Shown here piece after piece: positions 5,054 through 32,482 of a stretch of 64,000 nt of DNA. The stretch is taken from positions 5,344-69,343 of the forward strand of contig CAZABP010000016.1 of NCBI GenBank assembly GCA_964483245.1, given 5' to 3'. The notes below the pieces were generated by a model. That model was given only the letters and a program-made list of their open reading frames with translations, ran no database searches and was not told where the DNA came from. A program made the translations under genes and the position numbers. The stretch's first letter is position 1, and each line of letters begins with the position of its first letter. The DNA comes from an uncultured candidatus Brocadiaceae bacterium. GTDB lineage: Bacteria > Planctomycetota > UBA1135 > UBA2386.

Positions 5054-6060
5054 CGCCGCCGGCCGATCCAGCCGCGCCGGCGGAACCACAGCAGCATGCC
5101 GACCGAGATCGACACCATGACCAGCCAGACCGCTGGATAGGCCCATGGGTGCGCCAGCTCCGGCATGTGTTCGAAGTTCATCCCGTAGATCCCGACCACG
5201 AACGTCAGCGGAATGAAGATCGACGCCATCACGGTCAGCGTCTTCATGACCTCGTTCAGCCGGTTGCTGACGCCGGTCTGGTAGAGCTCGAACAGCGAAA
5301 CGACGAACTCGCGCAGGCCTTCGGTCATGTCGAGTGCCTGCATCACGTGATCCACGACGTCGCGCAGGTAGACCCGCACCGACGGCCCAAACATCGCCGA
5401 CTCCTCGCGCACGCTGCTGCTGAGCGCGTCGCGCGTCTGCCACAGGTGGCGGTGCAGCGTCAGCAGGTTGCGACGCAGCGTGTGGATCTCGAGCGGCGGG
5501 GCGCCGGCCGGGTCCGCGATGACGGTCGCCTCGAGCGCGTCGATGCGCGCGCCGAGCTGTTCGACCAGTGGGAAGTAGCTGTCGACCAGCGCGTCGACCA
5601 GCGTGTACGCGAGGTAGTCGGCGCCGCTGCGCCGGATCGGCGCGAGGCCGGCGCGCAGCCGCACGCGCACCGGCTCGAACGGATCGCCTGGGCGCTCCTG
5701 GAACGTCAGCACCCATCCCGGTCCGAGCACGATCGAGACCTGCTCGATCCAGATCTCGCCGGTGTCCTGCGGGTGCGGCTGCCCGAGCACGATCAGGTAG
5801 CGGTCGTCGAACGCCTCGATCTTCGGACGCTGGCCGGTGTTGACGATGTCGGCGAGCAGCAGCGGATGCAGGCCGAACATCTCCCCGATCCGGCGCAGCT
5901 TCGCCTCGTCGCCGAAGCCGGTGACGTCGATCCACGCGATCCCGGGGACCGGCGGCACGGCCAGCCGGTCGATCGCGTCGATGCGCTCCTCGACCAGCCG
6001 CGTCTGGTCGTAGGCGATCCGGTGGACGACCGGCGCAAGCGCATCGGCCGGGATCGCCAT
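4990..6060 (-). CDS. corA: magnesium/cobalt transporter CorA
   Basis: YGMNF (GMN) signature followed by two C-terminal TM helices. Start set to ATG 6060 (MAIPADAL). The 3' end overlaps the convergent gene by 64 bp. Confidence 0.85.
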   Translation of the reverse strand: MAIPADALAPVVHRIAYDQTRLVEERIDAIDRLAVPPVPGIAWIDVTGFGDEAKLRRIGEMFGLHPLLLADIVNTGQRPKIEAFDDRYLIVLGQPHPQDTGEIWIEQVSIVLGPGWVLTFQERPGDPFEPVRVRLRAGLAPIRRSGADYLAYTLVDALVDSYFPLVEQLGARIDALEATVIADPAGAPPLEIHTLRRNLLTLHRHLWQTRDALSSSVREESAMFGPSVRVYLRDVVDHVMQALDMTEGLREFVVSLFELYQTGVSNRLNEVMKTLTVMASIFIPLTFVVGIYGMNFEHMPELAHPWAYPAVWLVMVSISVGMLLWFRRRGWIGRRRQRRDGTSSTSAIAAPPNTTS

Positions 6061-6204: not shown

Positions 6205-8625
6205 CTACCGGCGCAGGCCGCTCGACAGACGGAGACCGGACAGCGTTTCGCCGTCCCGCGCGATGACCGCGGATGCCGTGTTCGGCGCGAACTCGTGGTG
6301 GAGCACCGCCGGCACCAGGTCCAGGCCGGGGGGCACGTGCTCGAGTCGGAAGCGACCCTGCGCATCCGTCTCCGTCGTGTGGTGGTAGCCGATCCGCTGG
6401 CGGCCCTGCGTGTTCCGCAGCTCCTGATCCACCTCGGCGACCTTGATCCGTCCACGTTCGCCGCGGCCGACGAGCATCACGAGGGCGCCGGCGAGGGGCG
6501 CGCCGTCGGCCGCGACGACGACGCCCTCGAGCGTGCCACCCGCGCGCAGTTCGAGCCGCACGTCGCTGCGCACTTCGCGCGGGCCGAGCCGGATCGGACC
6601 GGACCACGTGAACGCCCGATCCCGTTCGTGCGCGGAGACCATGTAGCGCCCCGGCGCGAGCCCGTCGAAGTGGAACATCCGGTCCGGCTCCGGTTCGTCC
6701 ATGCCGGCCGCGAGCTGGCCGCGGAAACCGAGCGCGCGCTCCGCCACCTGGTCGAAGTCGAGCTCCTGCTGGTCGTCCGGCAGCTTCGTCAACCAGACGT
6801 CGAACGGGCCGCAGACGAGATCCTCGCCGGTGACCGTGTCGTGCAGCACACCGTGGATCTCCCCGTCGTGCGCGCCGACGTCCCGCGGGTCCTGCGAGGA
6901 CTTGAGCTCGATCTGCAGTCCTTCGGTGCCGGCCGCGACGCCAGGCAACGTGAACCGCGACCAACGCCCGCCGCCACCACTCAGCGTCCAGTCGCCCGAT
7001 CCGAGTCCGCGCAGCACGAAGCCACCTTCGGCGTCGAACGTCGCCCAGATCCGCGCGCGCCCTTCGGCCGGCGTCGCCTGCAACTGGAAATGCGTCTTGC
7101 TGCCGGGCGTCCAGCCGAGCACGCGGCCGGTGATCGTGCGTCCGGCCGCGAGCTCGATCCGCCGCTGATGCGGCCCGCGGTCGTTCAGCTCGAGCCGGAG
7201 ATCGACGATCGGATGCCCCTGCCGCGTCGCGTCGACGCGCAGCAGCTTCGGGCCGATCGTTGCGACGGTGAGCTTCGCGCTGCCGGCTGCGTCCGTGACG
7301 CCGGCGGCGTCTGGCGACTGGTACTCCGGATCGCCGCTGCGCGCCGCGGGGCCATAGAGCCGCACGAACGCCTTCGGCACGGCACGCCCCTGCGCGTCGA
7401 CGACTTCGACCAGCAGCGGATACGGCGTCACCGCCGTGTTCAGCGAGCGGGCGAGGCGCGCGACGACCGGATCGGGTGCGCGCTGGCGGGTGATCCGGAC
7501 GATGCCGGAGTTCCACGTGATGTAGTCCTGACGGCGCACGACGAACGTGTAGCCCTGGGTCGGTCCGTCGACAGGCAGCGCGCAGGTGAACCGACCGCCG
7601 GGATCCGAGGTCGTCTCGACGGCGAACCGCGCGGCCTTCGACCCGCCCTGCCGCTCGACCGAGGTCACGACGATCTCGGCGCCGGAGAGCGGGCGGCCGT
7701 CCTCATCGGTGACCAGGCCGGTGACCTCCACCGGTGTGGGTGCGGCTGCCTCGGGCGGAGCTTCGACTGGTGCCGGCGCTGGCGTGACCGGCTGCCGGCC
7801 GCTGGTCGGCGTCGGATCCTGCGGCGTCGGGTCCTGCGCGACTGGCATCGCATCGCTGCGCGCGATCGAGCGTGCGGCCACCGCCGGCGCCTCCGCAGTC
7901 GAGCCGTCGAGCACCAGCCACGTGATCGAGCTCGTCAGCGCAAGCAGGATCGCGGCGGCGGCGAGTTTCGCCGACAGCGCGCTGGTCGTGGCGGCGGACG
8001 TCAGCCCGAGCAGGTGCGTTTCGAGCTGGGCCGGGATCGGTGCCGGTGGGATCGCAGCGATTGCGTCGGTCAGCGAGGCAGCGACCGCGGCGAAGCCGAG
8101 CCGCGCGAGCGTGCTGCGCAGCCGCGCGAGTCCACGCTCCACGCGCCCGTGCGCGGTCGCCTCGGCGCAGCCGACCAGATCGCCGACCGCGGCGAACGTG
8201 AGACCCTGCTGGTAGCGCAGGATGACCGGGACGCGCAGCTCTTCCGGCAGGGCGTCCAGCTCACGCTGCAGAACACGCTGCAGCTCGTGCTGCTCGTGTG
8301 CGGATTCGTCACGGCTGATCGGTTCGTCTCGTTCCATCGCTCCTGGCTCCTCGTGCGCGCGGCGCCGGCGGGCGCTGCGCTGGTGGTTGAGCGCGAGACG
8401 GATCGCGAGCCAGCACAGCAGCTCGCGGGTCGCAGGCCCGCTGGCGGCATCCGGCCGTTCGCGTTTGCGCAAGATCTCCAGGAACACCTGCTGCGCCACG
8501 TCCTCCGCATCCGCCGGCTGGCGGACGATGCGAAGGGCCGCCCGGTAGACCGCCGCATGGTGGTCACGGACCAGGGCCGGGTAGCTCGGGTGTTGGGTCT
8601 GGGTCATCCGCAGTTCACGCTCCAC
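6205..8625 (-). CDS. ECF sigma factor fused to a TM helix and a large periplasmic region of CarboxypepD_reg-like repeats
   Basis: The N-terminal 170 aa carry sigma-70 region 2 (DAEDVAQQVFLEI) and region 4 (LTFAAVGDLVGCAEATAHGRVERGL). A hydrophobic helix AAAILLALTSSITWLVL follows, then about 560 aa of beta-sandwich-like repeats. The listed start at 8625 is GTG; ATG 8607 (MTQTQ) is an alternative. Confidence 0.75.
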   Translation of the reverse strand: MERELRMTQTQHPSYPALVRDHHAAVYRAALRIVRQPADAEDVAQQVFLEILRKRERPDAASGPATRELLCWLAIRLALNHQRSARRRRAHEEPGAMERDEPISRDESAHEQHELQRVLQRELDALPEELRVPVILRYQQGLTFAAVGDLVGCAEATAHGRVERGLARLRSTLARLGFAAVAASLTDAIAAIPPAPIPAQLETHLLGLTSAATTSALSAKLAAAAILLALTSSITWLVLDGSTAEAPAVAARSIARSDAMPVAQDPTPQDPTPTSGRQPVTPAPAPVEAPPEAAAPTPVEVTGLVTDEDGRPLSGAEIVVTSVERQGGSKAARFAVETTSDPGGRFTCALPVDGPTQGYTFVVRRQDYITWNSGIVRITRQRAPDPVVARLARSLNTAVTPYPLLVEVVDAQGRAVPKAFVRLYGPAARSGDPEYQSPDAAGVTDAAGSAKLTVATIGPKLLRVDATRQGHPIVDLRLELNDRGPHQRRIELAAGRTITGRVLGWTPGSKTHFQLQATPAEGRARIWATFDAEGGFVLRGLGSGDWTLSGGGGRWSRFTLPGVAAGTEGLQIELKSSQDPRDVGAHDGEIHGVLHDTVTGEDLVCGPFDVWLTKLPDDQQELDFDQVAERALGFRGQLAAGMDEPEPDRMFHFDGLAPGRYMVSAHERDRAFTWSGPIRLGPREVRSDVRLELRAGGTLEGVVVAADGAPLAGALVMLVGRGERGRIKVAEVDQELRNTQGRQRIGYHHTTETDAQGRFRLEHVPPGLDLVPAVLHHEFAPNTASAVIARDGETLSGLRLSSGLRR

Positions 8626-8698
8626 AGAGAAGCAACCGGAGCGCGCCGGATCTTCGGGAGCCGGGTGATTCTCCAGAGGAGCGGCCCGGAGCGGCAGG

Positions 8699-9244
8699 TC
8701 AGGTCCCGCTGATCACGCAACCGACCGGTTCCGTGACCGGCACCGAGACCGGCCGGCCGGCCAGCAGCTCGTCGAGCGCGGCACGCAGATCGCGCGTCCG
8801 GACCACGCGCCGCCGGCGCCCGAGATCCTCCCACGCGTCGTCGATGCGGCCGCGGTAGACGGCCCCGTCGTGCGTCACGACGAACGCCTCCGGCGTCGTC
8901 CGGGCACCGAGGGCACGCACCAGCCGATGGTCGGGGTCGAGCAGGATCGTGCCGGGCAGCTCGTAGGCCGTGGCGTGCTCGCGCGCGCGCGCCGGCGCCA
9001 GCGCCCGGTCGGCGTGCACGACGTAGAGCCGGATGCCGCGTGGTTCGTACTCGGCGGCGAGTGCGCGCAGCTCCGGGGCGTACGAGTTCGCGATCGGACA
9101 GTCGGTCGACACGAACAGGATCAGGTGGGCGCGCGCCGTCGCGACCTGCAGCGGCGCATGCCCGCGGCCGTCGGTATCCGTGACGTGCACCGCCTCGCTG
9201 CACGCAGCGAGCAGCGACAGCGCAGCGAGCCACGGCCTTCGCAT
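8699..9244 (-). CDS. thioredoxin-fold (AhpC/TSA-redoxin-like) lipoprotein
   Basis: Signal peptide with lipobox LLAAC. Redoxin-like LILFVSTDCPIANSY with a single Cys. Its ATG overlaps the stop of the upstream gene (TGATG). Confidence 0.7.
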   Translation of the reverse strand: MRRPWLAALSLLAACSEAVHVTDTDGRGHAPLQVATARAHLILFVSTDCPIANSYAPELRALAAEYEPRGIRLYVVHADRALAPARAREHATAYELPGTILLDPDHRLVRALGARTTPEAFVVTHDGAVYRGRIDDAWEDLGRRRRVVRTRDLRAALDELLAGRPVSVPVTEPVGCVISGT

Positions 9245-10743
9245 CAGCGCCCGCCGACCTCGGCGCGGAGCTTCGCGAGCTCCTGCTGGTCGAGCTTGCC
9301 GTCGGCGTTCGCATCGAACCGGCGCAGCAGACTGGCGTACCGCGGCGGCACCTCATCGGCGGTCAGCTCTCCGTCCGCGTTGCGGTCGAGCCGTGCGATC
9401 TGCGCCTGTGCGGCGCGCGCGATGCCGCGCGCGCCGCCGGCGCGCAGCTGCGCACGCAAGGCTTCGTGCAGCTGCGGCAGCTCCGTCTCGTCGGCGGCGA
9501 CGAGCTGCAGCGTGATGCTGCCCATCTCGTCCTCCGACTCGCGCCCCCAGCGCACGCGCTGCGGCGGCACGTGTGGGTTCGCCGGGTTGTCGGCCGAGTT
9601 GTCGTAGTGCAGCTCGGCGTCGAGGCGGGTCCCGGCCGGCAGCGCGACCGGCTGCTCGTAGTGGTAGCGATCCTGCCACGCGAAGTCCCAGCGCGGGATC
9701 TCGAGCAACACCGTTGACGTGCCGTCCGGCAGGACCGCGGTCAGCTGCATGCTCGTGCACAGGTAGTGCGCGTGCCCGCCGACCGACAGGGCTTCGATCG
9801 CGATCGGCAGCGTGAACGAGTCGCGCACGACGTAGTCCCGTTCGCCGGCCGGGATGTCGATCCCGTGCAGCGCGCCGAACACCGGCGGGATCTGCACGGC
9901 GGCGAGCGTGCGCGCCGGCTTCTTCCTGGCGAGATGGATCCCGACCGTCGTCTGCTCCCGTTCGGCCTTGCCGGATGGATGGAAATGCGTCTGCAACACG
10001 AGGTCGGCCCCCTTGGGCAGCGGCAGCGCGAGCTCCTGCGGCCAGAACTGCGGCGTCATGCCGACCGCCCAGCCGCCGAGCTGCCCCCAGCCGGGGCCGG
10101 ACGTGTCGCCGCGGCGGCCGCCGAAACCCATGCCGCGGAAGCCCGGTCTGCCGTCGCGCCCGTCGAGCTCGCGCGCACGTCCGGTCGTGTCGGCGAAATA
10201 AAGCACGTGGTGCACGACGCTGCGCGCGCTCGGCCGCAGCTCGATCGCGCGGATCCACAGCTCCTCGTCGCGCCCGATCGGCAACACGAAGTTGCGGTAG
10301 ATGTCCGGACCGGCGGCCGGGACTTCGAACGCTTCGCGCATCGTCAGGACGAGGTCCGGTTCACCGAGCTGCCAGCCGCTGCCGGACTCCGGCAGCGGCG
10401 GCAGCGCCTCGGCCGGTCCCTCCGGCGTCCCGTTGTCGACCCACGCACGCAGCGTCGCGATCTGCTCGGCACTCAGCCGCCGCTCGTCGACGAAGCGGTG
10501 TTCACCCGCTGCGGCGTGCCACGGTGGCATCAGCCCGCGTTCGGTCACGCGCGCGATCATCCGCGCCTTGCGACGGGCGTCTTCGTAGGTCAGCAGCGGG
10601 AATGGTGCTGCTTCGCCCGGGCGATGGCAGGTCGCACAGTGCTCGAACAGGATCGGGGCGACCTGCTCAGTGAACGTCTGCGCCGGGAGCCATCCACAGA
10701 GCAACGGAGCAGCGAGGAGCCAGCCGGCGGACGGATGCTTCAT
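9244..10743 (-). CDS. secreted c-type heme domain / PHM-DBH-like copper monooxygenase domains / two EF-hand loops
   Basis: Signal peptide, then CATCH heme-c motif. Copper-ligand pattern VVHHVLYF ... LQTHFH ... GGHAHYL ... DEMG. C-terminal DRNADGELTADE and DANADGKLDQQE loops. Confidence 0.75.
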   Translation of the reverse strand: MKHPSAGWLLAAPLLCGWLPAQTFTEQVAPILFEHCATCHRPGEAAPFPLLTYEDARRKARMIARVTERGLMPPWHAAAGEHRFVDERRLSAEQIATLRAWVDNGTPEGPAEALPPLPESGSGWQLGEPDLVLTMREAFEVPAAGPDIYRNFVLPIGRDEELWIRAIELRPSARSVVHHVLYFADTTGRARELDGRDGRPGFRGMGFGGRRGDTSGPGWGQLGGWAVGMTPQFWPQELALPLPKGADLVLQTHFHPSGKAEREQTTVGIHLARKKPARTLAAVQIPPVFGALHGIDIPAGERDYVVRDSFTLPIAIEALSVGGHAHYLCTSMQLTAVLPDGTSTVLLEIPRWDFAWQDRYHYEQPVALPAGTRLDAELHYDNSADNPANPHVPPQRVRWGRESEDEMGSITLQLVAADETELPQLHEALRAQLRAGGARGIARAAQAQIARLDRNADGELTADEVPPRYASLLRRFDANADGKLDQQELAKLRAEVGGR

Positions 10744-10822
10744 GGCTGCGCGATCGTGGCCAGCGGGCGTCCGGGTCCGCCGCAGGCTCCGCGTCGCAAG
10801 TTCGTCACGCCTAGATGCTCGG

Positions 10823-11263
10823 TCAGCGCACCGTCAGCACCGGACAGGACGCCTCCCGCACGACCCGCTCGGCTGTGCTGCCGAGCAGGAAGTGCTTGAT
10901 CCCGGTGTGCCCGTGCGTCGCCATGACGATCAGGTCCGGCTTGCGTTGCTTCGCCAGTTCGAGCAGCTCGTGGAACGGCACGCCCTCGCGCAGGATCGTC
11001 TCGACGGCGACGCCGGCCGGGATCTTCTCGCGCGCGACCTGGGCGAGCTTCTCCTGCGCCCAGTTGCGCGTGCGCTCCTGGATCTCGAGCACGGCGACCG
11101 TGGCGACCTCAGCCGCCATCGTCGACAAGTACGGCGGCGGATCGACGATGTGCGCGAGCAGGATCTTGCCGCCGCCGGCCTTTGCGAGCTCGACCGCCTT
11201 GGCCAGCGCGGCCTCCGACGGAGGCGAGAAATCGGTCGGGACCAGGATCGTGGCGAAGTTCAT
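10823..11263 (-). CDS. universal stress protein (UspA family)
   Basis: MNFATILVPTDFS ... DLIVMATHGHTGIKHFLLGSTAERVVREASCPVLTV. Start moved to ATG 11263. Confidence 0.85.
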   Translation of the reverse strand: MNFATILVPTDFSPPSEAALAKAVELAKAGGGKILLAHIVDPPPYLSTMAAEVATVAVLEIQERTRNWAQEKLAQVAREKIPAGVAVETILREGVPFHELLELAKQRKPDLIVMATHGHTGIKHFLLGSTAERVVREASCPVLTVR

Positions 11264-19318: not shown

Positions 19319-19415
19319 TTTCCGGCCGGGGCGCGACAGATCCGGGGGGCGGTGCCGTCTGTAGGGCAGCCCGGCGGGAGCCGGGTGACGACCAACCCGA
19401 GAGAGAGCGAGAGAG

Positions 19416-20198
19416 ATGAGAGCTTCGATTCTTCCGATGTTCGCGCTGCTGTGCCTGGCGGCGTCCGCCCAGGAACCTGTTCAACAGGACCAGCGCGTAT
19501 CCGCGCGCATTCAGCAGGCGGAACCGCTGGTGACGCTGCGATTCGAGGGTGGCACGCTCGCACAGTTCGTCGACTCGCTGCGGCAGCAGCGGGAAGGACT
19601 CAACATCCTGGTTCCCGACGGGGCGGAGCGTGTGCAGGTGCCGGCGATGACAGTCAAGGATGCCAGCGTGCCGTCGGTGTTGCAGGCGGTTTGCGATCTC
19701 ACCGAGTCTCGCGATGTGTCGCTCGGCATGAAGTCCTACGGCGGCATCGGGCAGCCGATTTACGCACTGCGGGTGGACTTCCGCGAGCGCCGTGAGGTCA
19801 CGCAACACATCGGGCGCGTGACGGAGCGGCGCGTGCACGTACTGTCGCTGGCGAACCTCGACACGTCGTCCGCATCCGTGTTGTCCGCGATCGAGGGAGC
19901 CTTGCAGGGCGTAGAGAGCGAGCCGCGCCCGACCGTCCGCTATCACGCGAGCACGCAACTCGCGTTCATCGAAGGTACTACGGAGGCGATCTCGGTGGCC
20001 GCGGAAGTCGTCAGCGCGATCCGCGCGACCGACAAGAAATGGATGCAGACGCAGGCGATGAAGTACCCGGCCGGGTACCCGAACCAGCCGATCCAGGTGC
20101 CTGGTCCGCAGGGCGAGGCCCCCGCACGCGAACCGGACGAGGGGAAGGAGCCGGCCGAGCCGCGCAAGCAGGACTCGAAGAAGCAGGGCGCCAAGTAG
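19416..20198 (+). CDS. hypothetical secreted protein with a Lys/Glu/Pro-rich tail
   Basis: Signal peptide MRASILPMFALLCLAASAQE. A purine (GA) tract lies immediately upstream. First gene of a probable operon with the ECF sigma and anti-sigma genes. Confidence 0.6.
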   Translation: MRASILPMFALLCLAASAQEPVQQDQRVSARIQQAEPLVTLRFEGGTLAQFVDSLRQQREGLNILVPDGAERVQVPAMTVKDASVPSVLQAVCDLTESRDVSLGMKSYGGIGQPIYALRVDFRERREVTQHIGRVTERRVHVLSLANLDTSSASVLSAIEGALQGVESEPRPTVRYHASTQLAFIEGTTEAISVAAEVVSAIRATDKKWMQTQAMKYPAGYPNQPIQVPGPQGEAPAREPDEGKEPAEPRKQDSKKQGAK

Positions 20199-20771: not shown

Positions 20772-21177
20772 TCCGTTCGCATCCGCACCCGCTGCAATGC
20801 TCTCGCCGGCCGGCACCGCACGCCGCGACCTGCTGCGCGCCGAGCTGACCGGCCTGGTCCGGCGCCGGCGCACGGTGCGCCGCGTGACGCGCACCGCCGC
20901 CGTGTTGCTGTTCTCGGCCGGGATCGGCTGGCTCGCGCTGCGCGAGAAGCCCGCCGTGCTCCCCGCCGTCCCCGGCTACGAGGTCGTCGCCAACGATCCT
21001 TCGGTGTTGCAGCGCCTGTCGATCCCCGAGCGTCCGCTCGCAGCCGAGACGTTCCTCGACGACGACGGTCTGCAGGACTGGCTGCGGCGCGCCGGTCTGC
21101 CGCCCGGCTACGTGCGCACGCCGGAACGGATCGTGTTGATGCCGGAGGTCGCCGAAGCGCTCGCCGAAGCACCGTGA
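20758..21177 (+). CDS. single-pass anti-sigma factor
   Basis: Overlaps the sigma gene by 14 nt. One TM helix, AAVLLFSAGIGWLAL. Its last roughly 115 nt lie inside direct repeat A. Confidence 0.65.
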   Translation: MTTSDPFASAPAAMLSPAGTARRDLLRAELTGLVRRRRTVRRVTRTAAVLLFSAGIGWLALREKPAVLPAVPGYEVVANDPSVLQRLSIPERPLAAETFLDDDGLQDWLRRAGLPPGYVRTPERIVLMPEVAEALAEAP

Positions 21178-21183
21178 AGCGCG
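21063..21183. repeat. direct repeat A (121 bp), 119/121 identical to 25110..25230
   Basis: Aligned by eye. The only mismatches are caggaCtgg/caggaTtgg and gccgaAgcg/gccgaGgcg. Contains the 3' end and stop of the anti-sigma gene. Confidence 0.9.
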
Positions 21184-21230
21184 TGATTGGCAGGCCGCAT
21201 GGCATCAGGTGCGCGGAGAGGGGTCACTCG

Positions 21231-21260
21231 CCGCCACCGCTCGAGCGGTGCTCGTGGCGG
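21231..21260. terminator. nested GC-rich hairpin between convergent genes (possible bidirectional terminator)
   Basis: CCGCCAC ... GTGGCGG outer stem encloses the palindrome CGCTCGAGCG. There is no U-tract. Confidence 0.3.
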
Positions 21261-21262
21261 TA

Positions 21263-22924
21263 CTACTGGATCGTGACCGCGAGTGCGCGCGTGGTGACGC
21301 CGTACGGGCCGACCGCGTCCTGCCCGAAGACCAGCCATTGCGCGTAGAACGTCGCGCCGCGCAGGCGCGGGTCGTTGGGGATCGTTGTTTCGAACCGCGA
21401 CCAGCCCTTGTGGCTGATGCCCTGCGCCTGCCGGACGAACTGTGCGTCGATCGAGGTGCGCAGCGTGCAGCCCGGCATGCCGAAGGCGGTGAGGTCGAGC
21501 GGGAGCGGGGTGCCGTTCCAGATGGTCGAGGAGGAGCCGAGTACGAGTTGTGCGGAGGTGCCCGGGACGACGCGGGACAAGTTGATCGCGAACGGCTTGC
21601 CGAGTTCCGGCGTGAAGCTGGTGCCGATGCGCGGGATCACGCCTGCGCGCGTCGCGCATCCGGTGCCGAGCGTGGTGACGCCGACCGGCGCGCCTGAGTA
21701 GGCGCGGACGCGGTTGACCTTGCGCACAGGATCCCAGAAGCCGGGGATCACGAAGTCGGGGAACTCGTCGCCGTCGAGATCGCCGGCAGCGTAACCGAAA
21801 TAGGATTGAAGATTCGAATCGACGACAGACCACAGGAGCGACTGGTCGCGACCGGAATGGATGAAGGACTCCACGCCGAACCCACCGACGAACAGGTCAT
21901 CGTGAGCGTCGCCGTCGATGTCGCCAACCCGCGCCAGCCAGTCGCCGAAGCGGCGCTCCGGCGGCAACCTTTGAAACCGGAACAACTCGCGGCCGTCCGG
22001 TCCACCGAAGCCGTAGACCCGGTACCGGGTAGGGACGACGACACTGCCGTGATCGCTGGCTGCAAAGTCGTCGAATCCATCGGCGTTGAGGTCGCCTGCG
22101 GCGCACCAGCCCAAAGCGAATGCTCCAGTCGGTTCCGGGGGATAGACGCGAAAATGCTCCTGGTGAGTCCGTCCGGAGTAGAAGCGCGGGACGTCTGGGC
22201 CTCGCAACGGGTGAAGACCGAACGGTCGGATCAGGTAGTCAGGGGTTCCGTCGCCGTTCACATCTCCTGCCGGCGCTGCCCAGCCGAAGCCATGGTACGG
22301 GACCTCCCCATAGTGGTCTGCGATCCTCAGGCCCGCTCGCAGCGACACGATGCTCACTCTCCCGAGATAGAGATTGGGAGGAGTCGAGCCGTAGGAGTGG
22401 TCTCCGAACGAGAGCTCGGTGATGCCGTCACGATCCAGATCCCCGACTGCGTCGACGCGACCTGTCCAGGATGTGTTCGCCCAACGCAGGATCGGCGCTC
22501 GCTTGGCGCCGGACCAGATCGTGTGGATCGCGTAGTTGGGTCCGTGCGTGATCGTGAACCAGTCGGGCACGGCGTCCAGATCGACGTCGCCCAGCGCAAG
22601 CGTCCAACCGAGGTTCTCGTTGGCGTAGGTTCCACGAAGCTCGAACAGCTGCTGTCCCGTCCGACCCGAGTAGACGTGGATGCGCCCCGAATCCACCGGC
22701 GCGCCGACCGGCTCACGCTCCGAGACTGCCAGCTCGGTCGCGCCGTCGCGATCGAGGTCCCCGATCATGGTGATCGATTCGCCGAACCGATCGTCCCCGC
22801 CTGGCCGCGGCGTCCCGCTCCACTCGTGGATCAAGCGTTGCGCCGGAAGCACGGAGGCGAGCAGAAGCGCGACCGCTGCTCCGTGGCGCATCAGGCGAAG
22901 CCCAGCGCTGACCGACTCGACCAT
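21263..22924 (-). CDS. secreted FG-GAP (integrin-alpha-like) beta-propeller protein with an unnamed C-terminal domain
   Basis: Signal peptide. Repeated GDLDRDG / GDVNGDG / GDLNADG / GDIDGDAHDD / GDLDGDEFPD Ca-binding loops. C-terminal 130 aa is homologous to the C-terminus of the Kelch protein at 27346..29529. Confidence 0.8.
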   Translation of the reverse strand: MVESVSAGLRLMRHGAAVALLLASVLPAQRLIHEWSGTPRPGGDDRFGESITMIGDLDRDGATELAVSEREPVGAPVDSGRIHVYSGRTGQQLFELRGTYANENLGWTLALGDVDLDAVPDWFTITHGPNYAIHTIWSGAKRAPILRWANTSWTGRVDAVGDLDRDGITELSFGDHSYGSTPPNLYLGRVSIVSLRAGLRIADHYGEVPYHGFGWAAPAGDVNGDGTPDYLIRPFGLHPLRGPDVPRFYSGRTHQEHFRVYPPEPTGAFALGWCAAGDLNADGFDDFAASDHGSVVVPTRYRVYGFGGPDGRELFRFQRLPPERRFGDWLARVGDIDGDAHDDLFVGGFGVESFIHSGRDQSLLWSVVDSNLQSYFGYAAGDLDGDEFPDFVIPGFWDPVRKVNRVRAYSGAPVGVTTLGTGCATRAGVIPRIGTSFTPELGKPFAINLSRVVPGTSAQLVLGSSSTIWNGTPLPLDLTAFGMPGCTLRTSIDAQFVRQAQGISHKGWSRFETTIPNDPRLRGATFYAQWLVFGQDAVGPYGVTTRALAVTIQ

Positions 22925-22925
22925 G

Positions 22926-24746
22926 TCACATCACCTGCACGAACGCTGCCACGCTCGGGAATCTCGTATTCACGCCGCCCCACGTGTTCTTCGTCACGAC
23001 GAACAGCATGTAGTAGCCCGGTGGCGCGATATTCCTTCCACCCTGCGCGATCGCGGGGAGCGGCTGCAGCGTGAGCTGGTTGCCGGAAGCTGCTTGTACC
23101 GGGAGGCGGACCACCTTCTGATCCCAGTCGAAGTGGTGGGTCACCGACGCGCACCGGATCAATGTCGCGAATTCGATCTCCGTCGCCGGATTCTGGGCGC
23201 CTGCGAGCGCGATCGTCAACGTCGGGATCGCAGCGCCGTAGTTGAGCACGGCTGGCGGATTCACGAGCTGGGGGCGGGCAACGGCCCAGCGCAGGTAGTC
23301 CGGGAGGAAGATCTCGGCGTCCGTGTGGATCAGCGCGTTAGGGGGCAGAGTGGTCTTGTAGCCGCCGGCCAGCAGCACGCGGCCATCGGGCAGCAACACG
23401 GCTACGGTGTGGTAAAGCCGTGGCGAATCGTGCGGCTCCAGCAGCTGCCATCCGGCCTGAGCATTCAGGAGATCCAGTCGTTCAGGCTCGTAGACCGGCT
23501 GCGGAGCCACTTCTGGCGGATTGCCTGTCGCTTTGGCAAAGGGAGCGAATTGGTTCTCGCTTCCCCCGAAGACCACCACGCTCATGTCCGGCAGGATCGT
23601 GGCATTGGCGAAGAGCCGGCGCTTGCTCAGCGTCGACCACCCGGCCGGTCGCGTCCAAGTTGACTGCGTGTTGCTCGGATCTGTCATCTCCCAGGCGGTG
23701 TTCTCCGCTACACGACTCGGCGGAGCTTTCCTGTACCAGAGATTCGAGTCCCAGCCGCCGATCACGACGACGCGGTCGGTGCTGGGTGACTGGCCCACGG
23801 TCCATGGCCAGAGGAACGCCGTTGGATACACCAGATTCACGAGCTGGCTGCTGCTGTCCTGCAGCGTCGATGGGTGAGCTTGCCAAGTCCATGTACTCGG
23901 TGCTCCCGCGGAGACGTTGACGAACGCCGAAGGGCAGTAGTCGCGGTTGACCGTGCCGTTGTAGGCGCCCCAAGTTGCGACTGAGCAGAACACGTAGCCA
24001 TTCGAGAGCAGGTGCAGCAGCGGGTAGAAGTGGAACCCGAGGAGCGGCGGGGTCTTGCCCAGCCCGAGCACGGCGTCGCCACTCGGCATCCCGATCCACG
24101 TCCAGCTCGCCTTGTCGAAGACCTGGTGTTCGTCGGCTCGGTAGAAGACTGGCTCCAGCTGCCCGGTCCGGTACGGCCCGCAGGCCGCTGAGTTCCACGG
24201 TGCAGTACCTCCTCCCGCCAGGAACGCACGGCCGTCGGGCAGCGCAATCACGGAGGGGTAGTAGTGCCCCACGTCCTGTCCGGGGTTCGGCAGGTGCAGT
24301 AGCTCTGGAGTCTGCTGCCAAAGCAGCGAGTCAGGGAAGAACACGTACGACCAGTTCGGCTCCGTCTGGTCGCACTGTGAGTTCCGATCACCGCCGGCGA
24401 GGATGAGGTCGCCATCCTTGTCCCAGGTGTGGCCGGCGCAGAACTGGTTGTCGAGATGGTGGCCCGCGTTGGCGAGCTCAAGCGTGTGCGGTGCCGCCGG
24501 GTCCCAGAGCCACACGGTCTCGGTGGTTGCGTGGGTACGGAAGACGAGAACCTTCCCTTGGTGCGGCCCCGGCTTGCCGATCAGGGCGGCGTGCGCGATC
24601 TCCCAACCGTTCGGCAGGTTGGGCGACCAGTTGTAGGGCCCCTCCCAGCCGTCAGGGTTCCAGCCGATCTGCGCGGTGAGCGGTGCGAAACCAACGAGTA
24701 CGAACGACGCGAGCGCGACGAGCGACGAGCGACGAGCGACGAGCAA
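22926..24746 (-). CDS. galactose-oxidase/glyoxal-oxidase-like radical copper oxidase (Glyoxal_oxid_N plus DUF1929-like); start uncertain, possibly phase-variable
   Basis: Matches to galactose oxidase active-site contexts: NQFCAGH (Cys), HYYPSVIALPDGRAFLAGG (Tyr), RLYHTVAVLLPDGRVLLAGG (Tyr-His), SVTHHFDWDQ (His). C-terminal GYYMLFVV. The in-frame TTG at 24746 has no SD. The SD+ATG at 24771 is out of frame (see findings). Confidence 0.7.
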   Translation of the reverse strand: MLVARRSSLVALASFVLVGFAPLTAQIGWNPDGWEGPYNWSPNLPNGWEIAHAALIGKPGPHQGKVLVFRTHATTETVWLWDPAAPHTLELANAGHHLDNQFCAGHTWDKDGDLILAGGDRNSQCDQTEPNWSYVFFPDSLLWQQTPELLHLPNPGQDVGHYYPSVIALPDGRAFLAGGGTAPWNSAACGPYRTGQLEPVFYRADEHQVFDKASWTWIGMPSGDAVLGLGKTPPLLGFHFYPLLHLLSNGYVFCSVATWGAYNGTVNRDYCPSAFVNVSAGAPSTWTWQAHPSTLQDSSSQLVNLVYPTAFLWPWTVGQSPSTDRVVVIGGWDSNLWYRKAPPSRVAENTAWEMTDPSNTQSTWTRPAGWSTLSKRRLFANATILPDMSVVVFGGSENQFAPFAKATGNPPEVAPQPVYEPERLDLLNAQAGWQLLEPHDSPRLYHTVAVLLPDGRVLLAGGYKTTLPPNALIHTDAEIFLPDYLRWAVARPQLVNPPAVLNYGAAIPTLTIALAGAQNPATEIEFATLIRCASVTHHFDWDQKVVRLPVQAASGNQLTLQPLPAIAQGGRNIAPPGYYMLFVVTKNTWGGVNTRFPSVAAFVQVM

Positions 24747-24756
24747 CGAGCAACGA
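24715..24756. repeat. tandem heptanucleotide repeat, 6 units (plus strand 4x GCGACGA then 2x GCAACGA)
   Basis: Read directly from the sequence. Lies inside the signal-peptide coding region of the oxidase gene. Confidence 0.95.
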
Positions 24757-24779
24757 GATGAACGAACCCATGCGGTTGT

Positions 24780-24785
24780 CTCCTC
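24780..24785 (-). promoter_or_regulatory. Shine-Dalgarno GAGGAG, 8 nt upstream of ATG 24771-24769
   Basis: Minus-strand sequence is GAGGAGACAACCGCATG. Confidence 0.5.
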
Positions 24786-24868
24786 GGTATGGGCCACCGC
24801 GCAACTTAGCGTGCGTGGAGCGAGTCGGTCAACGGGGACAGGGATGCGCGCGAGCGCCTGGTCCATCC

Positions 24869-25034
24869 CTAGAAGTCGTTTCACCAAGCCTCCGCGGCTG
24901 CGGCCAGCCCCCGCACCCGATAGCGGCGTCGCGAGATCTGTGGCGAATCCATCGATTCGCCTGCGATCTCGCTCCTTGCACTCGGCCGCGCTGGCTCGGC
25001 CTCGCCTGCGAAGCATTCGTGAAACGACTTCTAG
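24869..25034. mobile_element. MITE-like non-autonomous element with perfect 16-bp terminal inverted repeats
   Basis: CTAGAAGTCGTTTCAC (24869-24884) is the exact reverse complement of GTGAAACGACTTCTAG (25019-25034). The interior carries nested hairpins, GCGAGATC..GGCGAATC CATC GATTCGCC..GATCTCGC. No ORF inside. Confidence 0.55.
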
Positions 25035-25224
25035 CGGTTGCCATTGTGCGCTGGCATCGGCTGGCTCGCGTTGCGCGCAGAGCCCGCAGCCCTGCCGGTT
25101 GTGCCGGGCCGACGGTCTGCAGGATTGGCTGCGGCGCGCCGGTCTGCCGCCCGGCTACGTGCGCACGCCGGAACGGATCGTGTTGATGCCGGAGGTCGCC
25201 GAGGCGCTCGCCGAAGCACCGTGA
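25035..25224 (+). pseudogene. decayed partial copy of the anti-sigma factor gene (TM end plus C-terminus, internal deletion)
   Basis: 25050-25109 resembles 20915-20975 (shared block ATCGGCTGGCTCGCG, roughly 70% overall). About 90 nt are then missing. 25110-25224 is near-identical to the anti-sigma 3' end. Confidence 0.6.
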
Positions 25225-25230
25225 AGCGCG
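25110..25230. repeat. direct repeat B (121 bp), partner of 21063..21183
   Basis: See repeat A. On the minus strand it contains the last 25 codons and stop of the 7-TM gene. Confidence 0.9.
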
Positions 25231-25928
25231 AGCATCCGCGCCACGAGCAGATGTCCGAACAGCGCCGCCTGCACCAACAGCGCCGGTAGCCAGACGAACG
25301 GCGCCTGCGCGACCCAGGTGTTCGGCGGCTCGGTGTGGAACACGCGCAGCGGCGTCGGCATCGACAACACCGCGATCGACACGATGACCACCAGCAGCGT
25401 CAGCCCGAGCAGGTTCCAGGCGCGCACGAGCCAGAGCGGTAACCGCCCGCCGCGCGCCAGCGCGACGACGTACAGCGCGAGCGCCGTGATCCCGGTCAGC
25501 ACGTCGTAGTTGCCGGCGACCCAAGTCATCTGCGGCGGCACGAACCCTTCGCGCCAGCCTTCGAACAGCAGCACCTCGACCAGGATCCGGAACGACTGGT
25601 AGCCGATCGCCCAGGTCCACGGCAGCCCCTGCGCCAGCCGCGTCCCGAACCGCGAGCGCGCCAGGTGGATCGTGCCGCCGACCGACATCACGAGCAGCAG
25701 CAGCATCGGCGGCGGCATCGTGCCGAATGCGAGATGGCCGCGTGCGGCCGCGAAGTACGTCACTGCCATCCACAGCGCCGCGACGAGCAACGTCCCGGCG
25801 ACCCAGCGGCGTGTCGTCGCCGGAGCTTCGCCGATCCCGCGGCCGGCGCGCGCGACCGCCATGCCGAGCGCGAGCACGAGCCCGACGCACAACGCCGTGA
25901 ACGTCGTCGTGAACAGGGGCGATGGCAT
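25155..25928 (-). CDS. hypothetical 7-TM integral membrane protein
   Basis: Start moved to ATG 25928 (MPSPLFTTTFTAL), which overlaps the stop of the upstream OMP gene (TGATG). About seven hydrophobic helices. Confidence 0.7.
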   Translation of the reverse strand: MPSPLFTTTFTALCVGLVLALGMAVARAGRGIGEAPATTRRWVAGTLLVAALWMAVTYFAAARGHLAFGTMPPPMLLLLVMSVGGTIHLARSRFGTRLAQGLPWTWAIGYQSFRILVEVLLFEGWREGFVPPQMTWVAGNYDVLTGITALALYVVALARGGRLPLWLVRAWNLLGLTLLVVIVSIAVLSMPTPLRVFHTEPPNTWVAQAPFVWLPALLVQAALFGHLLVARMLALHGASASASATSGINTIRSGVRT

Positions 25929-29555: not shown

Positions 29556-32330
29556 TCAGCGCCCGCCCGCAGCTCCCGGCAACGTCGCCCCCGCTTCGCG
29601 CGCCGCGTCCTCGATGCGCTGTGCGTCCTCGGTCCGGCCGGCGCGCAGCAGCTCCTGCCGCACGAACCCGGCGTGCTCGATCGGGCTGCGGTTCAGCCCG
29701 TCCTTCTGCGTCGCGGAGCCCGGACGCGCGAGCAGGCCGGCGATCGCGGCGTCGCGGGCCTGGTCGAAGTCGCCGCGTTCGGCGAGCAGCCGCGCGCGTG
29801 CGGCCTGCCCGAGCGCGATGTAGTGGCGCGACGAATCGCCGAAGTCCGGCCGCGCGTCGATCGCGGCACCGAACTCCTGGATCGCGCGCGCGTAGGCGGC
29901 CAGCGCACGCTCGGCATCGCGGTTGGCGACCTCCTGCTCGGCGGCGACGAATGCGGCGAGCGCGCCGTACCAGCTCCAGGTGGTGGCATCGACGCCGGGC
30001 ACCTGCAGCGCTGCAAACCCGGTGAGCAGTCCTTCGGCGCCACCTGCTTCGAGCAGCGCGGCGCGACCGTGCGCCTGGATCGCGACCGACAGTGGAAACC
30101 GGCGGATCGCCGCGCCGGCGAACTCGGCGTACGCGGCGCGCGCCTGCACGGTCGCGGCCCATTCGAGCGCCGTCGTGGCCAGTTGCTCGGTGCAGCCCGG
30201 CAGCGCGAGCAGCAGAGTGTACGCCGCACGCAGATCGGCGATCCAGGTCGCCGGCCAGTCGTCGCCGCCGGTCATCGCGGAGTACTGCTTGCGCAGCCGG
30301 CAGGACGCGAACGTGTCGAGCACCGCGGCGGCGAGCGGAGTGTCCGCTTCGGCGGCGAGGCCGGGCAGCGCCTGCTCGGCGTGCTCGAGCGCGGCATCGA
30401 GGTCGTTGCTCAGGTAGCTGCTCCAGGCGAGGTAGCCGTGCGCGCGGTGCGCCGGCGCGCCGTCCGCCAGCGCGCGTTTCGCCGCCGCCTGCGCGTCCTG
30501 GAACAGGAAGCCCGGGTCCTTCCCTTCCGCCTGCCGGGCGAACGCGTACTGCAGCGTCGTCTCGGCGAGTGCGAGCCGCGCCGCTGCATCGTCCGGCGTC
30601 GCCTTCAGCTTGCCGTCCAGCTCGGACAGCTTCGCGTCGAGCGCGTCGGCATCGAGGGCAGGCATCGGCCGCGCCGCAGCGAGCGCGCGCGACCAGCGCG
30701 CGGTGTCCAGCAGCTCGGAGGGCGCGCGCAGCCCGCGCGCGAGCTGCGCCAGCGTCTTCGCCTGCGCGTCGTCGCCGCGCGGCTTCGCCCAGACCTCCAC
30801 GGCGTCGCATAGCTTCGCGAGCAGCGCGGTGTCCCGATCTGCCTGGCGCAGCGCTTCGGTCAGCAGCTCCGGCGTGGCCGGCGCCGGGTGTGCGGCGATC
30901 GCGAGGAGGCCGGCGTGGCGGACCTTCGCATCCGGATCGCGCAACGCCAGGCGCACGAGCTCGGGATGTGCCGTGGCGCGCGCCGGCTCCAGCGCGGCCG
31001 TCGCCAGCCGCGCGCGCGTCGCGGCATCGGCGGCGAGGAACCTCCGCTCCAGCTCGTCGCGGTGCGATGCGTCCGGGCTGCTGAGCAGCTGCGCCTCGGT
31101 CAGCGATGCGGCGGGCGCCGTCTTCGGCTCCGGCCTGCCGTGCTCGCGCAGCGCCTGGTCGATCGGCTCCAGCCCCGCCGTCAGGAAGATGTCGAACAGG
31201 ATCGTGCCATCCGGCGCGACGCCGACGTGCCGCGGTGCGACGCGGTTGTTGCGGAAGTACCGCTCGAACACCAGCGGCTCGATCGCGATGTGCTCCTGGT
31301 TGACGATGCGGCCGAAGCGCCGATCCGGCAGCCGCCGCCCGCGGTCGTCGTGGTCGGCCGGATTGCGCCGGTCCGGCGACGCCACGACGCAGATGAACCC
31401 GTCGGCGAGGGCGCCGAACTCCGGGTCGCGGTAGCGGCCCCAGGCGAGCTGCTCGCAGGCACTCTCCCCATCCATGTTGACGCAGATCAACAACGGCTTG
31501 CCGGTCGCCTGCGACAGCGCGAGGGCATCGTCGAGGTTGCGCTGCCACGGCATCTGCGGCGGCAATGCACGGCGCGCCTCGAGGTCGAGTGCGTCACCGC
31601 GCGGACCGGCCCGCGATGCACGTGCCGGTCGGAGCTCCGCGGCTGCGAGGTCGCCGTCCTTGTTCGCATCGAGCGTGCGGTGGATGCGCGCGAGATCCGC
31701 GGCTGTGATCTGACCGTCGCCACTGGCGTCGAGATCGCTGGCGATCGTCAGCAGGAAGACGCCGGGAGTCACGGCGCCCGGCCGGTCGTCCGGGTCCGGT
31801 CCAGCGCGCTCGGCTGCTGCCAGTGCCGGTGCGAACGCCGCTGCAGGCAGTGCACCTTCGGCCGGGAACTGCGCCGTCCACGCGTCCCATTCGGCGCGCG
31901 TGACGTTGCGATCGCCGTCGGCATCGCTGGCGCGGAACAGGATCGTGCGCACGAAACCGGCCAGCGCATCCCCGCGCTGCCCGCGCCCCCCGGACTCGCT
32001 GCGTTGCACGATCGTGTCGCCGTCGCGGTCGGCGGCTGCGTGCAGGCCTGCGAGCTCCGCCCTCGTCGCGGCGCCATCACCGTCGGCATCCAGCACCGTG
32101 ACGACCAGGCGCTGCTTCAACCCCTCGACGTCGAACGTGTCGTCCGCGCGGCGCAGCGCCAACACCAGGGCATCCCACTCGGTGCGCGCGACGGCGCCAT
32201 TGCGGTCCTGGTCGGCGCAACGCGCGAGCACGGCGCTGCCGAACATCCCGCCACGGCCGGCATCCTGCGCAGCGAGCGGAGCGAAGAACGCCGCTGCCAG
32301 CGCAGCGGACGGGAGGAGGAGTCGGTGCAT
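29556..32330 (-). CDS. secreted multidomain protein: six EF-hand-like loops, thioredoxin-like (DUF255-type) domain, HEAT and TPR-like repeats
   Basis: Start moved to ATG 32330 (MHRLLLPSAALAAAFFAPLAAQ). Loops DQDRNGAV, DADGDGAA, DRDGDTIV, DADGDRNV, DASGDGQI, DANKDGDL. Then PLLICVNMDGESACEQL and LRDPDAKVRHAGLLAIAAH. Confidence 0.7.
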   Translation of the reverse strand: MHRLLLPSAALAAAFFAPLAAQDAGRGGMFGSAVLARCADQDRNGAVARTEWDALVLALRRADDTFDVEGLKQRLVVTVLDADGDGAATRAELAGLHAAADRDGDTIVQRSESGGRGQRGDALAGFVRTILFRASDADGDRNVTRAEWDAWTAQFPAEGALPAAAFAPALAAAERAGPDPDDRPGAVTPGVFLLTIASDLDASGDGQITAADLARIHRTLDANKDGDLAAAELRPARASRAGPRGDALDLEARRALPPQMPWQRNLDDALALSQATGKPLLICVNMDGESACEQLAWGRYRDPEFGALADGFICVVASPDRRNPADHDDRGRRLPDRRFGRIVNQEHIAIEPLVFERYFRNNRVAPRHVGVAPDGTILFDIFLTAGLEPIDQALREHGRPEPKTAPAASLTEAQLLSSPDASHRDELERRFLAADAATRARLATAALEPARATAHPELVRLALRDPDAKVRHAGLLAIAAHPAPATPELLTEALRQADRDTALLAKLCDAVEVWAKPRGDDAQAKTLAQLARGLRAPSELLDTARWSRALAAARPMPALDADALDAKLSELDGKLKATPDDAAARLALAETTLQYAFARQAEGKDPGFLFQDAQAAAKRALADGAPAHRAHGYLAWSSYLSNDLDAALEHAEQALPGLAAEADTPLAAAVLDTFASCRLRKQYSAMTGGDDWPATWIADLRAAYTLLLALPGCTEQLATTALEWAATVQARAAYAEFAGAAIRRFPLSVAIQAHGRAALLEAGGAEGLLTGFAALQVPGVDATTWSWYGALAAFVAAEQEVANRDAERALAAYARAIQEFGAAIDARPDFGDSSRHYIALGQAARARLLAERGDFDQARDAAIAGLLARPGSATQKDGLNRSPIEHAGFVRQELLRAGRTEDAQRIEDAAREAGATLPGAAGGR

Positions 32331-32482
32331 CGGGAGGGTCGTGGATCGGGCAGGGCGGCCGGAGGGGGTAGTCAAGCCCGCGGCGGGCGTGGCGCCAGCG
32401 GGGGAAGCGCTCGGTTGCGTCCTTTCGACCGGTCCGACGTCTTGGCAGGCAGCCACCTACGATCCAGAACGAGCGACGACCG

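Follow-up and report, generated by a model that had tools for sequence, protein, structure and literature searches.

A heptamer tract separating start codon and signal peptide in a planctomycete copper radical oxidase gene as a probable phase-variation switch, and its counterparts in related genes

How is a gene expressed when its strong ribosome-binding site and ATG lie out of frame with its 606-codon body, and does the number of repeats between the two decide whether it is read at all? The question is raised by a locus in a 64,000-nucleotide stretch of DNA (hereafter the window; positions 5,344 to 69,343 of contig CAZABP010000016.1, assembly GCA_964483245.1) from an uncultured candidatus Brocadiaceae bacterium of the phylum Planctomycetota, in which six tandem heptamers separate a Shine-Dalgarno-like (SD) sequence and its ATG from the signal-peptide region of a gene for a putative copper radical oxidase. 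A preliminary description of this DNA had read the locus as a slipped-strand, phase-variable contingency gene assembled in its OFF state. We consider slipped-strand translational phase variation, a known mechanism, to be the probable and best explanation. The comparative evidence strongly supports such a reading, as the same layout recurs in related genes, alleles differing in unit number exist in nature, the coding sequence appears to be under purifying selection and the active-site residues are retained.

On the minus strand, direct reading of the sequence gives, in this order, GAGGAG (24785-24780), an 8-nt spacer (ACAACCGC), the ATG (24771-24769), GGTTCGTTCATC, the heptamers and GCGCTCGCG (Table 1). 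Between the ATG and the first heptamer lie 15 nt, and all six units are in register, two TCGTTGC (24756-24743) being followed by four TCGTCGC (24742-24715), which read as 2x GCAACGA and 4x GCGACGA on the plus strand; the 5' coding region contains, in other words, a tandem repeat whose unit is not a multiple of three. Translation from the ATG yields MGSFISLLVARRSSLVARRARVVRTRWFRTAHRADRLEP and ends at a TGA after 39 codons; relative to this frame, the oxidase open reading frame (ORF), which stops at 22926-22928, is shifted to +1. In silico, whole-unit changes move the ATG in and out of frame with an otherwise intact ORF: one unit fewer gives the fusion MGSFISLLVARRSSLVALASFVLVGFAPLTAQ followed by IGW..., and two units more give an 8-unit fusion, both with a canonical signal peptide. 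Over the unit series, 2, 5 and 8 units result in a precursor of 605-619 residues (ON), and 4, 6 and 7 units in a stop after 39-65 codons (OFF). On re-reading the minus strand, we found the account of the SD, ATG, 39-codon frame, TGA and reading frames given by the preliminary description to be correct in every detail; its count of six heptamers was recovered both by direct reading and by Tandem Repeats Finder (TRF), and its claim that losing one unit or gaining two fuses the ATG to the ORF with a normal signal peptide is reproduced by the in silico series.

The G+C content at third codon positions (GC3) in the ORF frame is 0.55-0.65 upstream of ~24755 and rises to 0.8-0.95 downstream, and we therefore place the start of coding in the ATG region and not at the GTG (~24884) chosen by the gene caller. 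The public gene call (P0001, 652 aa) begins at this GTG (24882-24884, minus strand), ~110 nt upstream of the ATG, and its leader of ~70 residues, with low GC3 and a non-coding look, is false. Signal-peptide cleavage is predicted after the AQ, as in the relatives described below (A-x-AQ, then G/S-W), from an alignment of N-termini rather than from a signal-peptide predictor. A simple scan for promoters and terminators over 24400-25400 returned nothing.

In the mechanism that we propose, the heptamer array would act as a hypermutable tract between the true start (GAGGAG, 8 nt, ATG 24771) and the signal-peptide core, in which slipped-strand mispairing during replication would add or remove 7-nt units. 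At 2, 5 or 8 units, ribosomes starting at the ATG would read into the oxidase ORF and produce a precursor with a normal signal peptide; at 4, 7 or the assembled 6 units they would terminate early, and the 6-unit state, with its stop after 39 codons, would provide little or no exportable enzyme. The downstream gene, encoding a protein with FG-GAP repeats, would probably be co-regulated through translational coupling or polarity, since it begins 1 nt after the oxidase stop. A population would then always hold both ON and OFF cells for the secreted oxidase/FG-GAP pair.

Table 1. Features of the oxidase leader, of the oxidase and FG-GAP genes and of the direct repeats that bracket them, in window coordinates
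Feature	Position	Strand	Evidence or remark
Shine-Dalgarno-like GAGGAG	24780..24785	-	8 nt 5' of the ATG; direct sequence reading
ATG start codon, out of frame at the assembled 6 units	24769..24771	-	oxidase ORF in the +1 frame
Six tandem heptamers, proposed slippage tract	24715..24756	-	TCGTTGC x2, TCGTCGC x4
TTG in the ORF frame, inside the second repeat unit	24744..24746	-	possible weak alternative start, giving MLVARRSSLVALASFVLVGFAPLTAQ
Signal-peptide hydrophobic core and cleavage region (ALASFVLVGFAPLTAQ)	24669..24716	-	predicted cleavage after AQ, by N-terminus alignment
TGA closing the 39-codon ATG-frame product in the OFF state	24652..24654	-	translation in the ATG frame
Mature copper radical oxidase, kelch beta-propeller and GO-like E-set, including the stop (22926-22928)	22926..24668	-	Pfam, profile, GC3 ~0.9
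FG-GAP repeat protein gene, with its own signal peptide	21263..22924	-	Pfam; begins 1 nt after the oxidase stop
121-bp direct repeat, upstream copy	25110..25230		98.3% identical to the other copy
121-bp direct repeat, downstream copy	21063..21183		brackets the 3.9-kb oxidase and FG-GAP segment

The tract is exceptional within the window. TRF reports it at 24715-24757 with a period of 7, 6.1 copies and 97% matches, and its score of 72 is the highest among the 84 arrays of the window; it is the sole 4-9-mer with at least 4 perfect copies in the 64 kb, and in 300 third-order Markov simulations of the window no heptamer reached 4 perfect copies. When short CG runs are left out, the window and the loci of the oxidase subfamily (121 kb together) contain 13 simple repeats, of which 8 fall within ~100 nt downstream of the oxidase start, compared with an expectation of 0.1 (binomial P ~1e-14). 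As a negative control, we used 80 distant DUF1929 proteins (25-31% identity) from soil and other metagenomes, found by a family-profile metagenome scan. The 387 kb around these homologues display no heptamer array; their dinucleotide repeats are limited to CG/GC runs and a single (TG)5, and the only other repeats are ordinary 7-9-nt homopolymers and one hexamer.

The sequence points to a galactose-oxidase-like copper radical oxidase as the product of the ORF. Pfam identifies the GO-like E-set (PF09118, DUF1929) at 1.7e-14, with PF07250 (glyoxal oxidase N) and kelch matching more weakly, below or near the cut-off, and a profile of the subfamily matches the solved structures of galactose oxidases and Streptomyces GlxA with E values of 1e-35 to 1e-31. 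The architecture, a kelch beta-propeller with a C-terminal E-set, is that of galactose oxidase, glyoxal oxidase and GlxA (PDB 1GOF, 4UNM), and the cross-linked cofactor Cys and Tyr, the axial Tyr-His and the second His are conserved; the difference is that a good alignment is limited to the C-terminal 250 residues, with 25-35% identity. In the alignment to the galactose oxidase of PDB 9g8h, the motifs FCaGhs, ghYYps, RlYHs and SvTHhf pair with FCPG, GYQS, YHS and SVTH, and C103, Y163, Y445, H446 and H537 are invariant in a 10-sequence alignment. We take these motifs to correspond to Cys228, Tyr272, Tyr495-His496 and His581 of the classical Fusarium galactose oxidase. Because all these residues align, the name "radical copper oxidase" used in the preliminary description appears fair.

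That description had also called for the tract to be compared in relatives. The subfamily is small, with ~14 full-length clusters at 50% identity scoring above 480 bits before a sharp drop, and we inspected the DNA of nine further distinct genes from uncultured Planctomycetota, at 37-47% identity (Table 2). The layout recurs in eight of the nine, with differing repeats and with ON as well as OFF alleles: each has a strong SD, an ATG, a few codons, a repeat whose unit is not a multiple of three, a signal-peptide core and an A-x-AQ cleavage site. The SD motifs are GAGGAG, AGGAG, AAGGAG or GAGGAGGA, placed 2-9 nt before the ATG in most cases, the exception being L094, which has a weak GAAGG only, 11 nt upstream. 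At least five different repeat motifs occupy the same position, including a second heptamer unrelated to that of the window, and these were evidently acquired independently. Changing the count by a single unit gives each OFF allele a precursor that has a hydrophobic core and an A-x-A/Q cleavage site; nearly all of these precursors also have a charged n-region.

Table 2. Repeats between start codon and signal-peptide core in the oxidase gene of the window and in related genes, with the state of the assembled allele
Locus	Source	Repeat	State
Window	this contig	heptamer x6	OFF
L001	Planctomycetota groundwater metagenome-assembled genome (MAG)	C8	OFF
L002	same MAG as L001	C7	OFF
L003-6	four Logan runs	(TC)11	OFF
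L007	JGI 3300037422	(GA)4	OFF
L093	JGI 3300037422, same sample as L007	(GA)11	ON
L008	ENA	(AG)9	OFF
L010-12	three runs	(AG)9	OFF
L094-96	three JGI samples	(CCAAGCT)6-7, heptamer unrelated to that of the window	OFF
L098-100	ENA, JGI, Logan	(AG)10	OFF
L009	Logan	without long repeat	in frame

The (TC)11 tract is carried by public runs DRR438495/498/501/507, an (AG)9 tract by SRR11245131/132/134 and the (AG)10 tract by SRR11638334 and ERZ27272065. Among the repeat-bearing genes seen as DNA, one of nine is ON and eight are OFF, no significant departure from the one third ON expected (P = 0.14); when N-termini known at the protein level are included, ~5 are intact versus ~13 disrupted. Most gene calls in the relatives carry truncated signal peptides, and these mis-started calls, like the long leader of P0001, are gene-caller artefacts caused by the repeat; in P0005, the signal peptide is intact at the protein level. 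Inside the ORF of L002 there is, in addition, a run of eight G (L002 4743-4750), in frame.

Natural length variants were found among these family members, as (GA)4 versus (GA)11 and, at 99.9% protein identity, as (AG)10 versus (AG)8. The first pair, L007 and L093, has almost identical leaders that differ by exactly 14 nt, i.e. 7 GA units, the former being OFF and the latter ON. Over 596 codons, the two genes differ with a synonymous rate dS = 0.35 and a non-synonymous rate dN = 0.065, hence dN/dS = 0.19, which indicates purifying selection along lineages that include an OFF allele. In the second pair, P0406 (717 aa, ON) and the OFF protein P0259 (698 aa, called from an internal ATG) are identical at 697 of 698 shared positions and belong to the same 90% cluster, and the removal in silico of two AG units from L098, (AG)10 to (AG)8, recreates P0406 over its full length but for one substitution. 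Further pairs with an ON/OFF appearance were seen at the protein level only: P0396 (MGRERERERESLRLLL...) with the truncated P0252, and P0411 (MPPPSKFW...) with P0251/L002, each within a 90% cluster, and P0398 with P0257, which are 99.7% identical. P0398, the longer allele of the last pair, starts with MDTLRLRGEERRGEERRARS..., and its repeated GEERR suggests another repeat type, with a 15-nt or purine-rich unit, in the leader of that lineage.

The unit count could be a sequencing or assembly error, in which case the true number would be 5 or 8 and the gene an ordinary one with a repetitive leader. The source is indeed a metagenome-assembled contig (87.5 kb), and the locus is known from one assembly. 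The tract of 42 nt is, however, far shorter than a read, and the OFF tract lengths of the relatives are identical across 3-4 independent assemblies each, from different pipelines, from which we conclude that these lengths are real majority alleles and not assembly noise; the contigs were retrieved with the OFF protein itself and so cannot reveal other frames. Even with miscounted units, a repeat prone to slippage would still occupy that position. We thus regard a counting error as very unlikely.

Programmed recoding, by ribosomal frameshifting or by transcriptional slippage on the repeat, would instead give constant expression at a set level from every allele. It finds some support in L001 (C8) and L002 (C7), whose ATG frames contain the slippery heptamer C CCC CCC / C CCC CCA and which both need a -1 shift. 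The direction of the shift is nevertheless inconstant, being +1 in the window and in L007 and -1 in six other loci, and the motifs differ between loci (C-run, TC, AG, GA, two heptamers), so that neither a conserved slippery motif nor a constant direction was found. A stimulatory element is missing as well: an Rfam search of the leader gave no match, and the leader RNA folds more weakly than shuffled sequence (z = +1.97), for which reason a riboswitch or a frameshift-stimulating structure in the leader was rejected. Moreover, ON alleles exist at the DNA level, and dinucleotide and heptanucleotide arrays are not known to be recoding signals. The differing shift direction together with the lack of an Rfam element and of unusual RNA structure argue for switching at the level of DNA, and we consider recoding extremely unlikely.

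Expression could also be constitutive from the TTG at 24746, giving MLVARRSSLVALASFVLVGFAPLTAQ, with the SD and ATG driving a short overlapping upstream ORF and the repeat merely encoding a part of the signal peptide. This TTG is in frame, as the preliminary description had pointed out, and would provide a plausible 26-residue signal peptide with an RR n-region. In addition, the stop of the ATG frame overlaps an in-frame ATG in two relatives (ATGA in L002, TGATG in L008), resembling translational coupling; such an overlap occurs in only 2 of 8 OFF relatives, and coupling from the short ATG-frame ORF was rejected as a general explanation. No purine-rich SD precedes the TTG (24746-24744) in the sequence, again in agreement with the preliminary description. 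In several OFF relatives, the leader left by the first in-frame start has only 9-18 residues and lacks a charged n-region, or is missing altogether (MLMARADAQ in L007, MAVAVLAPMGLAQ in L008, none in L003), and internal initiation is therefore not a general solution. Nor would the TTG account for natural alleles in which whole-unit differences join the ATG to the ORF. On balance, constitutive expression from the TTG seems improbable to us.

The oxidase and FG-GAP genes form a constant pair, the order oxidase then FG-GAP being observed in all loci that are long enough (L003/L004, L010-12, L093, L094-96 and L098), and the pair is accessory. Two direct repeats of 121 bp bracket it in the window (Table 1). 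A sister-strain contig (L097), reached with the upstream membrane-protein gene as query, has flanks that are 89-92% identical to those of the window; it lacks window positions 21184-25109, i.e. the oxidase and FG-GAP genes, and carries a single copy of the 121-bp repeat (L097 2145-2265), from which we deduce that the cassette is accessory. Either a duplication accompanied its gain, or it was lost when the 121-bp repeats recombined. This accessory nature would explain why a second copy of the window's own tract could not be found: a scan of the genome collection gave only paralogues at 40-44%, and the sole close homologue of the oxidase is P0002, at 75% identity. Beyond the 121-bp repeat, a weaker similarity (78%) links 25037-25087 and 20904-20954.

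The absence of the bracketed segment from so close a relative could point to a dead or dying gene, in which six units would be a fixed frameshift in an accessory cassette on its way out and the repeat would have no regulatory role. Consistent with decay, L002 carries a second, unrelated lesion, a ~22-nt deletion with a frameshift (L002 5675-5696) relative to the 99%-identical Logan protein P0251, and its oxidase is annotated by NCBI as two fragments (P0409 and P0408); a majority of the repeat-bearing alleles is OFF. But the ORF of the window is open for 606 codons with a GC3 of ~0.9, its active-site residues are all retained, and the OFF/ON pair L007 and L093 evolves at the low dN/dS given above. 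Nor does decay predict that five different motifs would be independently acquired at the same position. We therefore judge a dead or dying gene to be an unlikely explanation.

Several points weigh against slipped-strand phase variation and temper our confidence in it. Eight of the nine repeat-bearing genes are OFF, a lean towards OFF that is not significant against chance (P = 0.14), and where family members have an intact signal peptide, it mostly contains no peptide encoded by a repeat. The additional frameshifting deletion in L002 suggests that some OFF alleles may be decaying. The tract of the window is known from one assembly, variation being seen in the tracts of relatives only, and the exact 5-unit and 8-unit window proteins are not in a collection of 15 billion proteins. 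The tract is also short and interrupted (four perfect and two variant units), and its slippage rate may be modest; finally, the in-frame TTG at 24746 could possibly give constitutive low expression and make the OFF state leaky. We infer, from the comparison with the relatives, that the window's own tract would switch, as we infer its switching rate, the co-regulation of the FG-GAP gene and the selective agent.

The proposed switch can be compared with three known systems. The Helicobacter pylori gene oipA (hopH) and the related sabA and hopZ carry CT repeats in the region coding for the signal peptide (PMC10564699). As in oipA, a simple repeat separates the start codon from the main part of the coding sequence for an exported protein, and its unit number would set the frame, ON or OFF, by slippage; the (TC)11 tract of L003-6 is even found at the same place. 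The systems differ in that oipA, with its CT repeat, encodes an adhesin/porin of a host-restricted pathogen, whereas here a heptamer belongs to the gene of a secreted enzyme of GC-rich Planctomycetota, in which we propose switching from sequence. The second system, neuO, encodes the O-acetyltransferase of the CUS-3 prophage in Escherichia coli K1 and contains AAGACTC heptamers in its 5' coding region, with 65.6% of genomes OFF (PMC13001214). Both have heptamers in the 5' coding region, one count in three that is ON and a location on an accessory element, and the proportion of about two thirds OFF in neuO is close to the ~5 intact versus ~13 disrupted N-termini counted here. In neuO, however, tracts range over 3-53 units and are ON if divisible by three, in contrast to six units (four of them perfect) with ON at 2, 5 and 8; moreover, the neuO repeat is translated into the mature enzyme, whereas the present repeat would encode the n-region of a cleaved signal peptide. 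The third system, the opa genes of Neisseria, has CTCTT pentamer repeats in the region coding for the leader peptide. There too the repeat lies within the signal-peptide coding sequence, and ON alleles differ in the cleaved leader only, leaving the mature protein unchanged; opa is however a multigene adhesin family within one genome, while we observe one cassette per locus and a motif that varies by lineage.

The window has a G+C content of 70.8%, and its queuosine gene queA has its best named relatives (61-69% identity) in Planctomycetota MAGs only, which identifies an uncultured planctomycete as the host. Elsewhere in the window, an imperfect GA tract (19398-19422, GAGAGAGAGCGAGAGAGATGAGAG) extends into the ATG at 19416, where a protein of 260 residues begins that has a signal peptide. 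It was rejected as a second switch: its place upstream of the ATG is that of an SD, and no frame is broken by it. Were its length to vary, it might tune initiation. A frame of 835 codons (6208-8712, minus strand) combines regions 2 and 4 of a sigma-70 factor of the extracytoplasmic function (ECF) type with carboxypeptidase-regulatory-like and Ig-like domains; between its two stops lie two genes, or else a single sigma factor whose C-terminal extension is very long. Two large ORFs (9247-10833 and 29559-32456, minus strand) have EF-hand calcium-binding motifs as their only Pfam matches.

Textbooks describe phase variation by simple repeats as a strategy of pathogens and commensals adapted to a host; from free-living environmental phyla it is hardly documented. 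Our search of the full-text literature found no description of it in Planctomycetota, in keeping with the earlier remark that such switches are rarely described in very high-GC environmental bacteria. Three things appear to be new here: the phylum; the target, since the switch would act on a secreted copper radical oxidase and its FG-GAP partner; and the evidently independent gain, across the family, of different repeat motifs at one position. Neither a fixed pairing with a secreted FG-GAP protein nor a 5' repeat switch is known as a feature of characterised copper radical oxidases. The broader proposal, that a free-living clade of uncultured Planctomycetota holds a secreted oxidase/FG-GAP cassette under stochastic ON/OFF control by at least five independently evolved motifs, and that this is a true contingency locus, we regard as evenly poised.

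For annotation, the lesson is that gene callers mis-start such genes and that secretome predictions will miss them. For the family, the data describe a conserved two-gene secreted module that carries a repeat switch in most of the lineages examined, with natural ON and OFF alleles, and would offer a concrete case of bet-hedging in groundwater- or soil-type bacteria, pointing to an extracellular oxidase that is costly to express in some conditions and valuable in others. If the proposal is true, it would place a contingency locus outside the host-associated bacteria in which such loci are known, and would imply strong fluctuating selection on an extracellular enzyme, for example through recognition by phages or predators, or through the cost of the peroxide that the enzyme itself makes.

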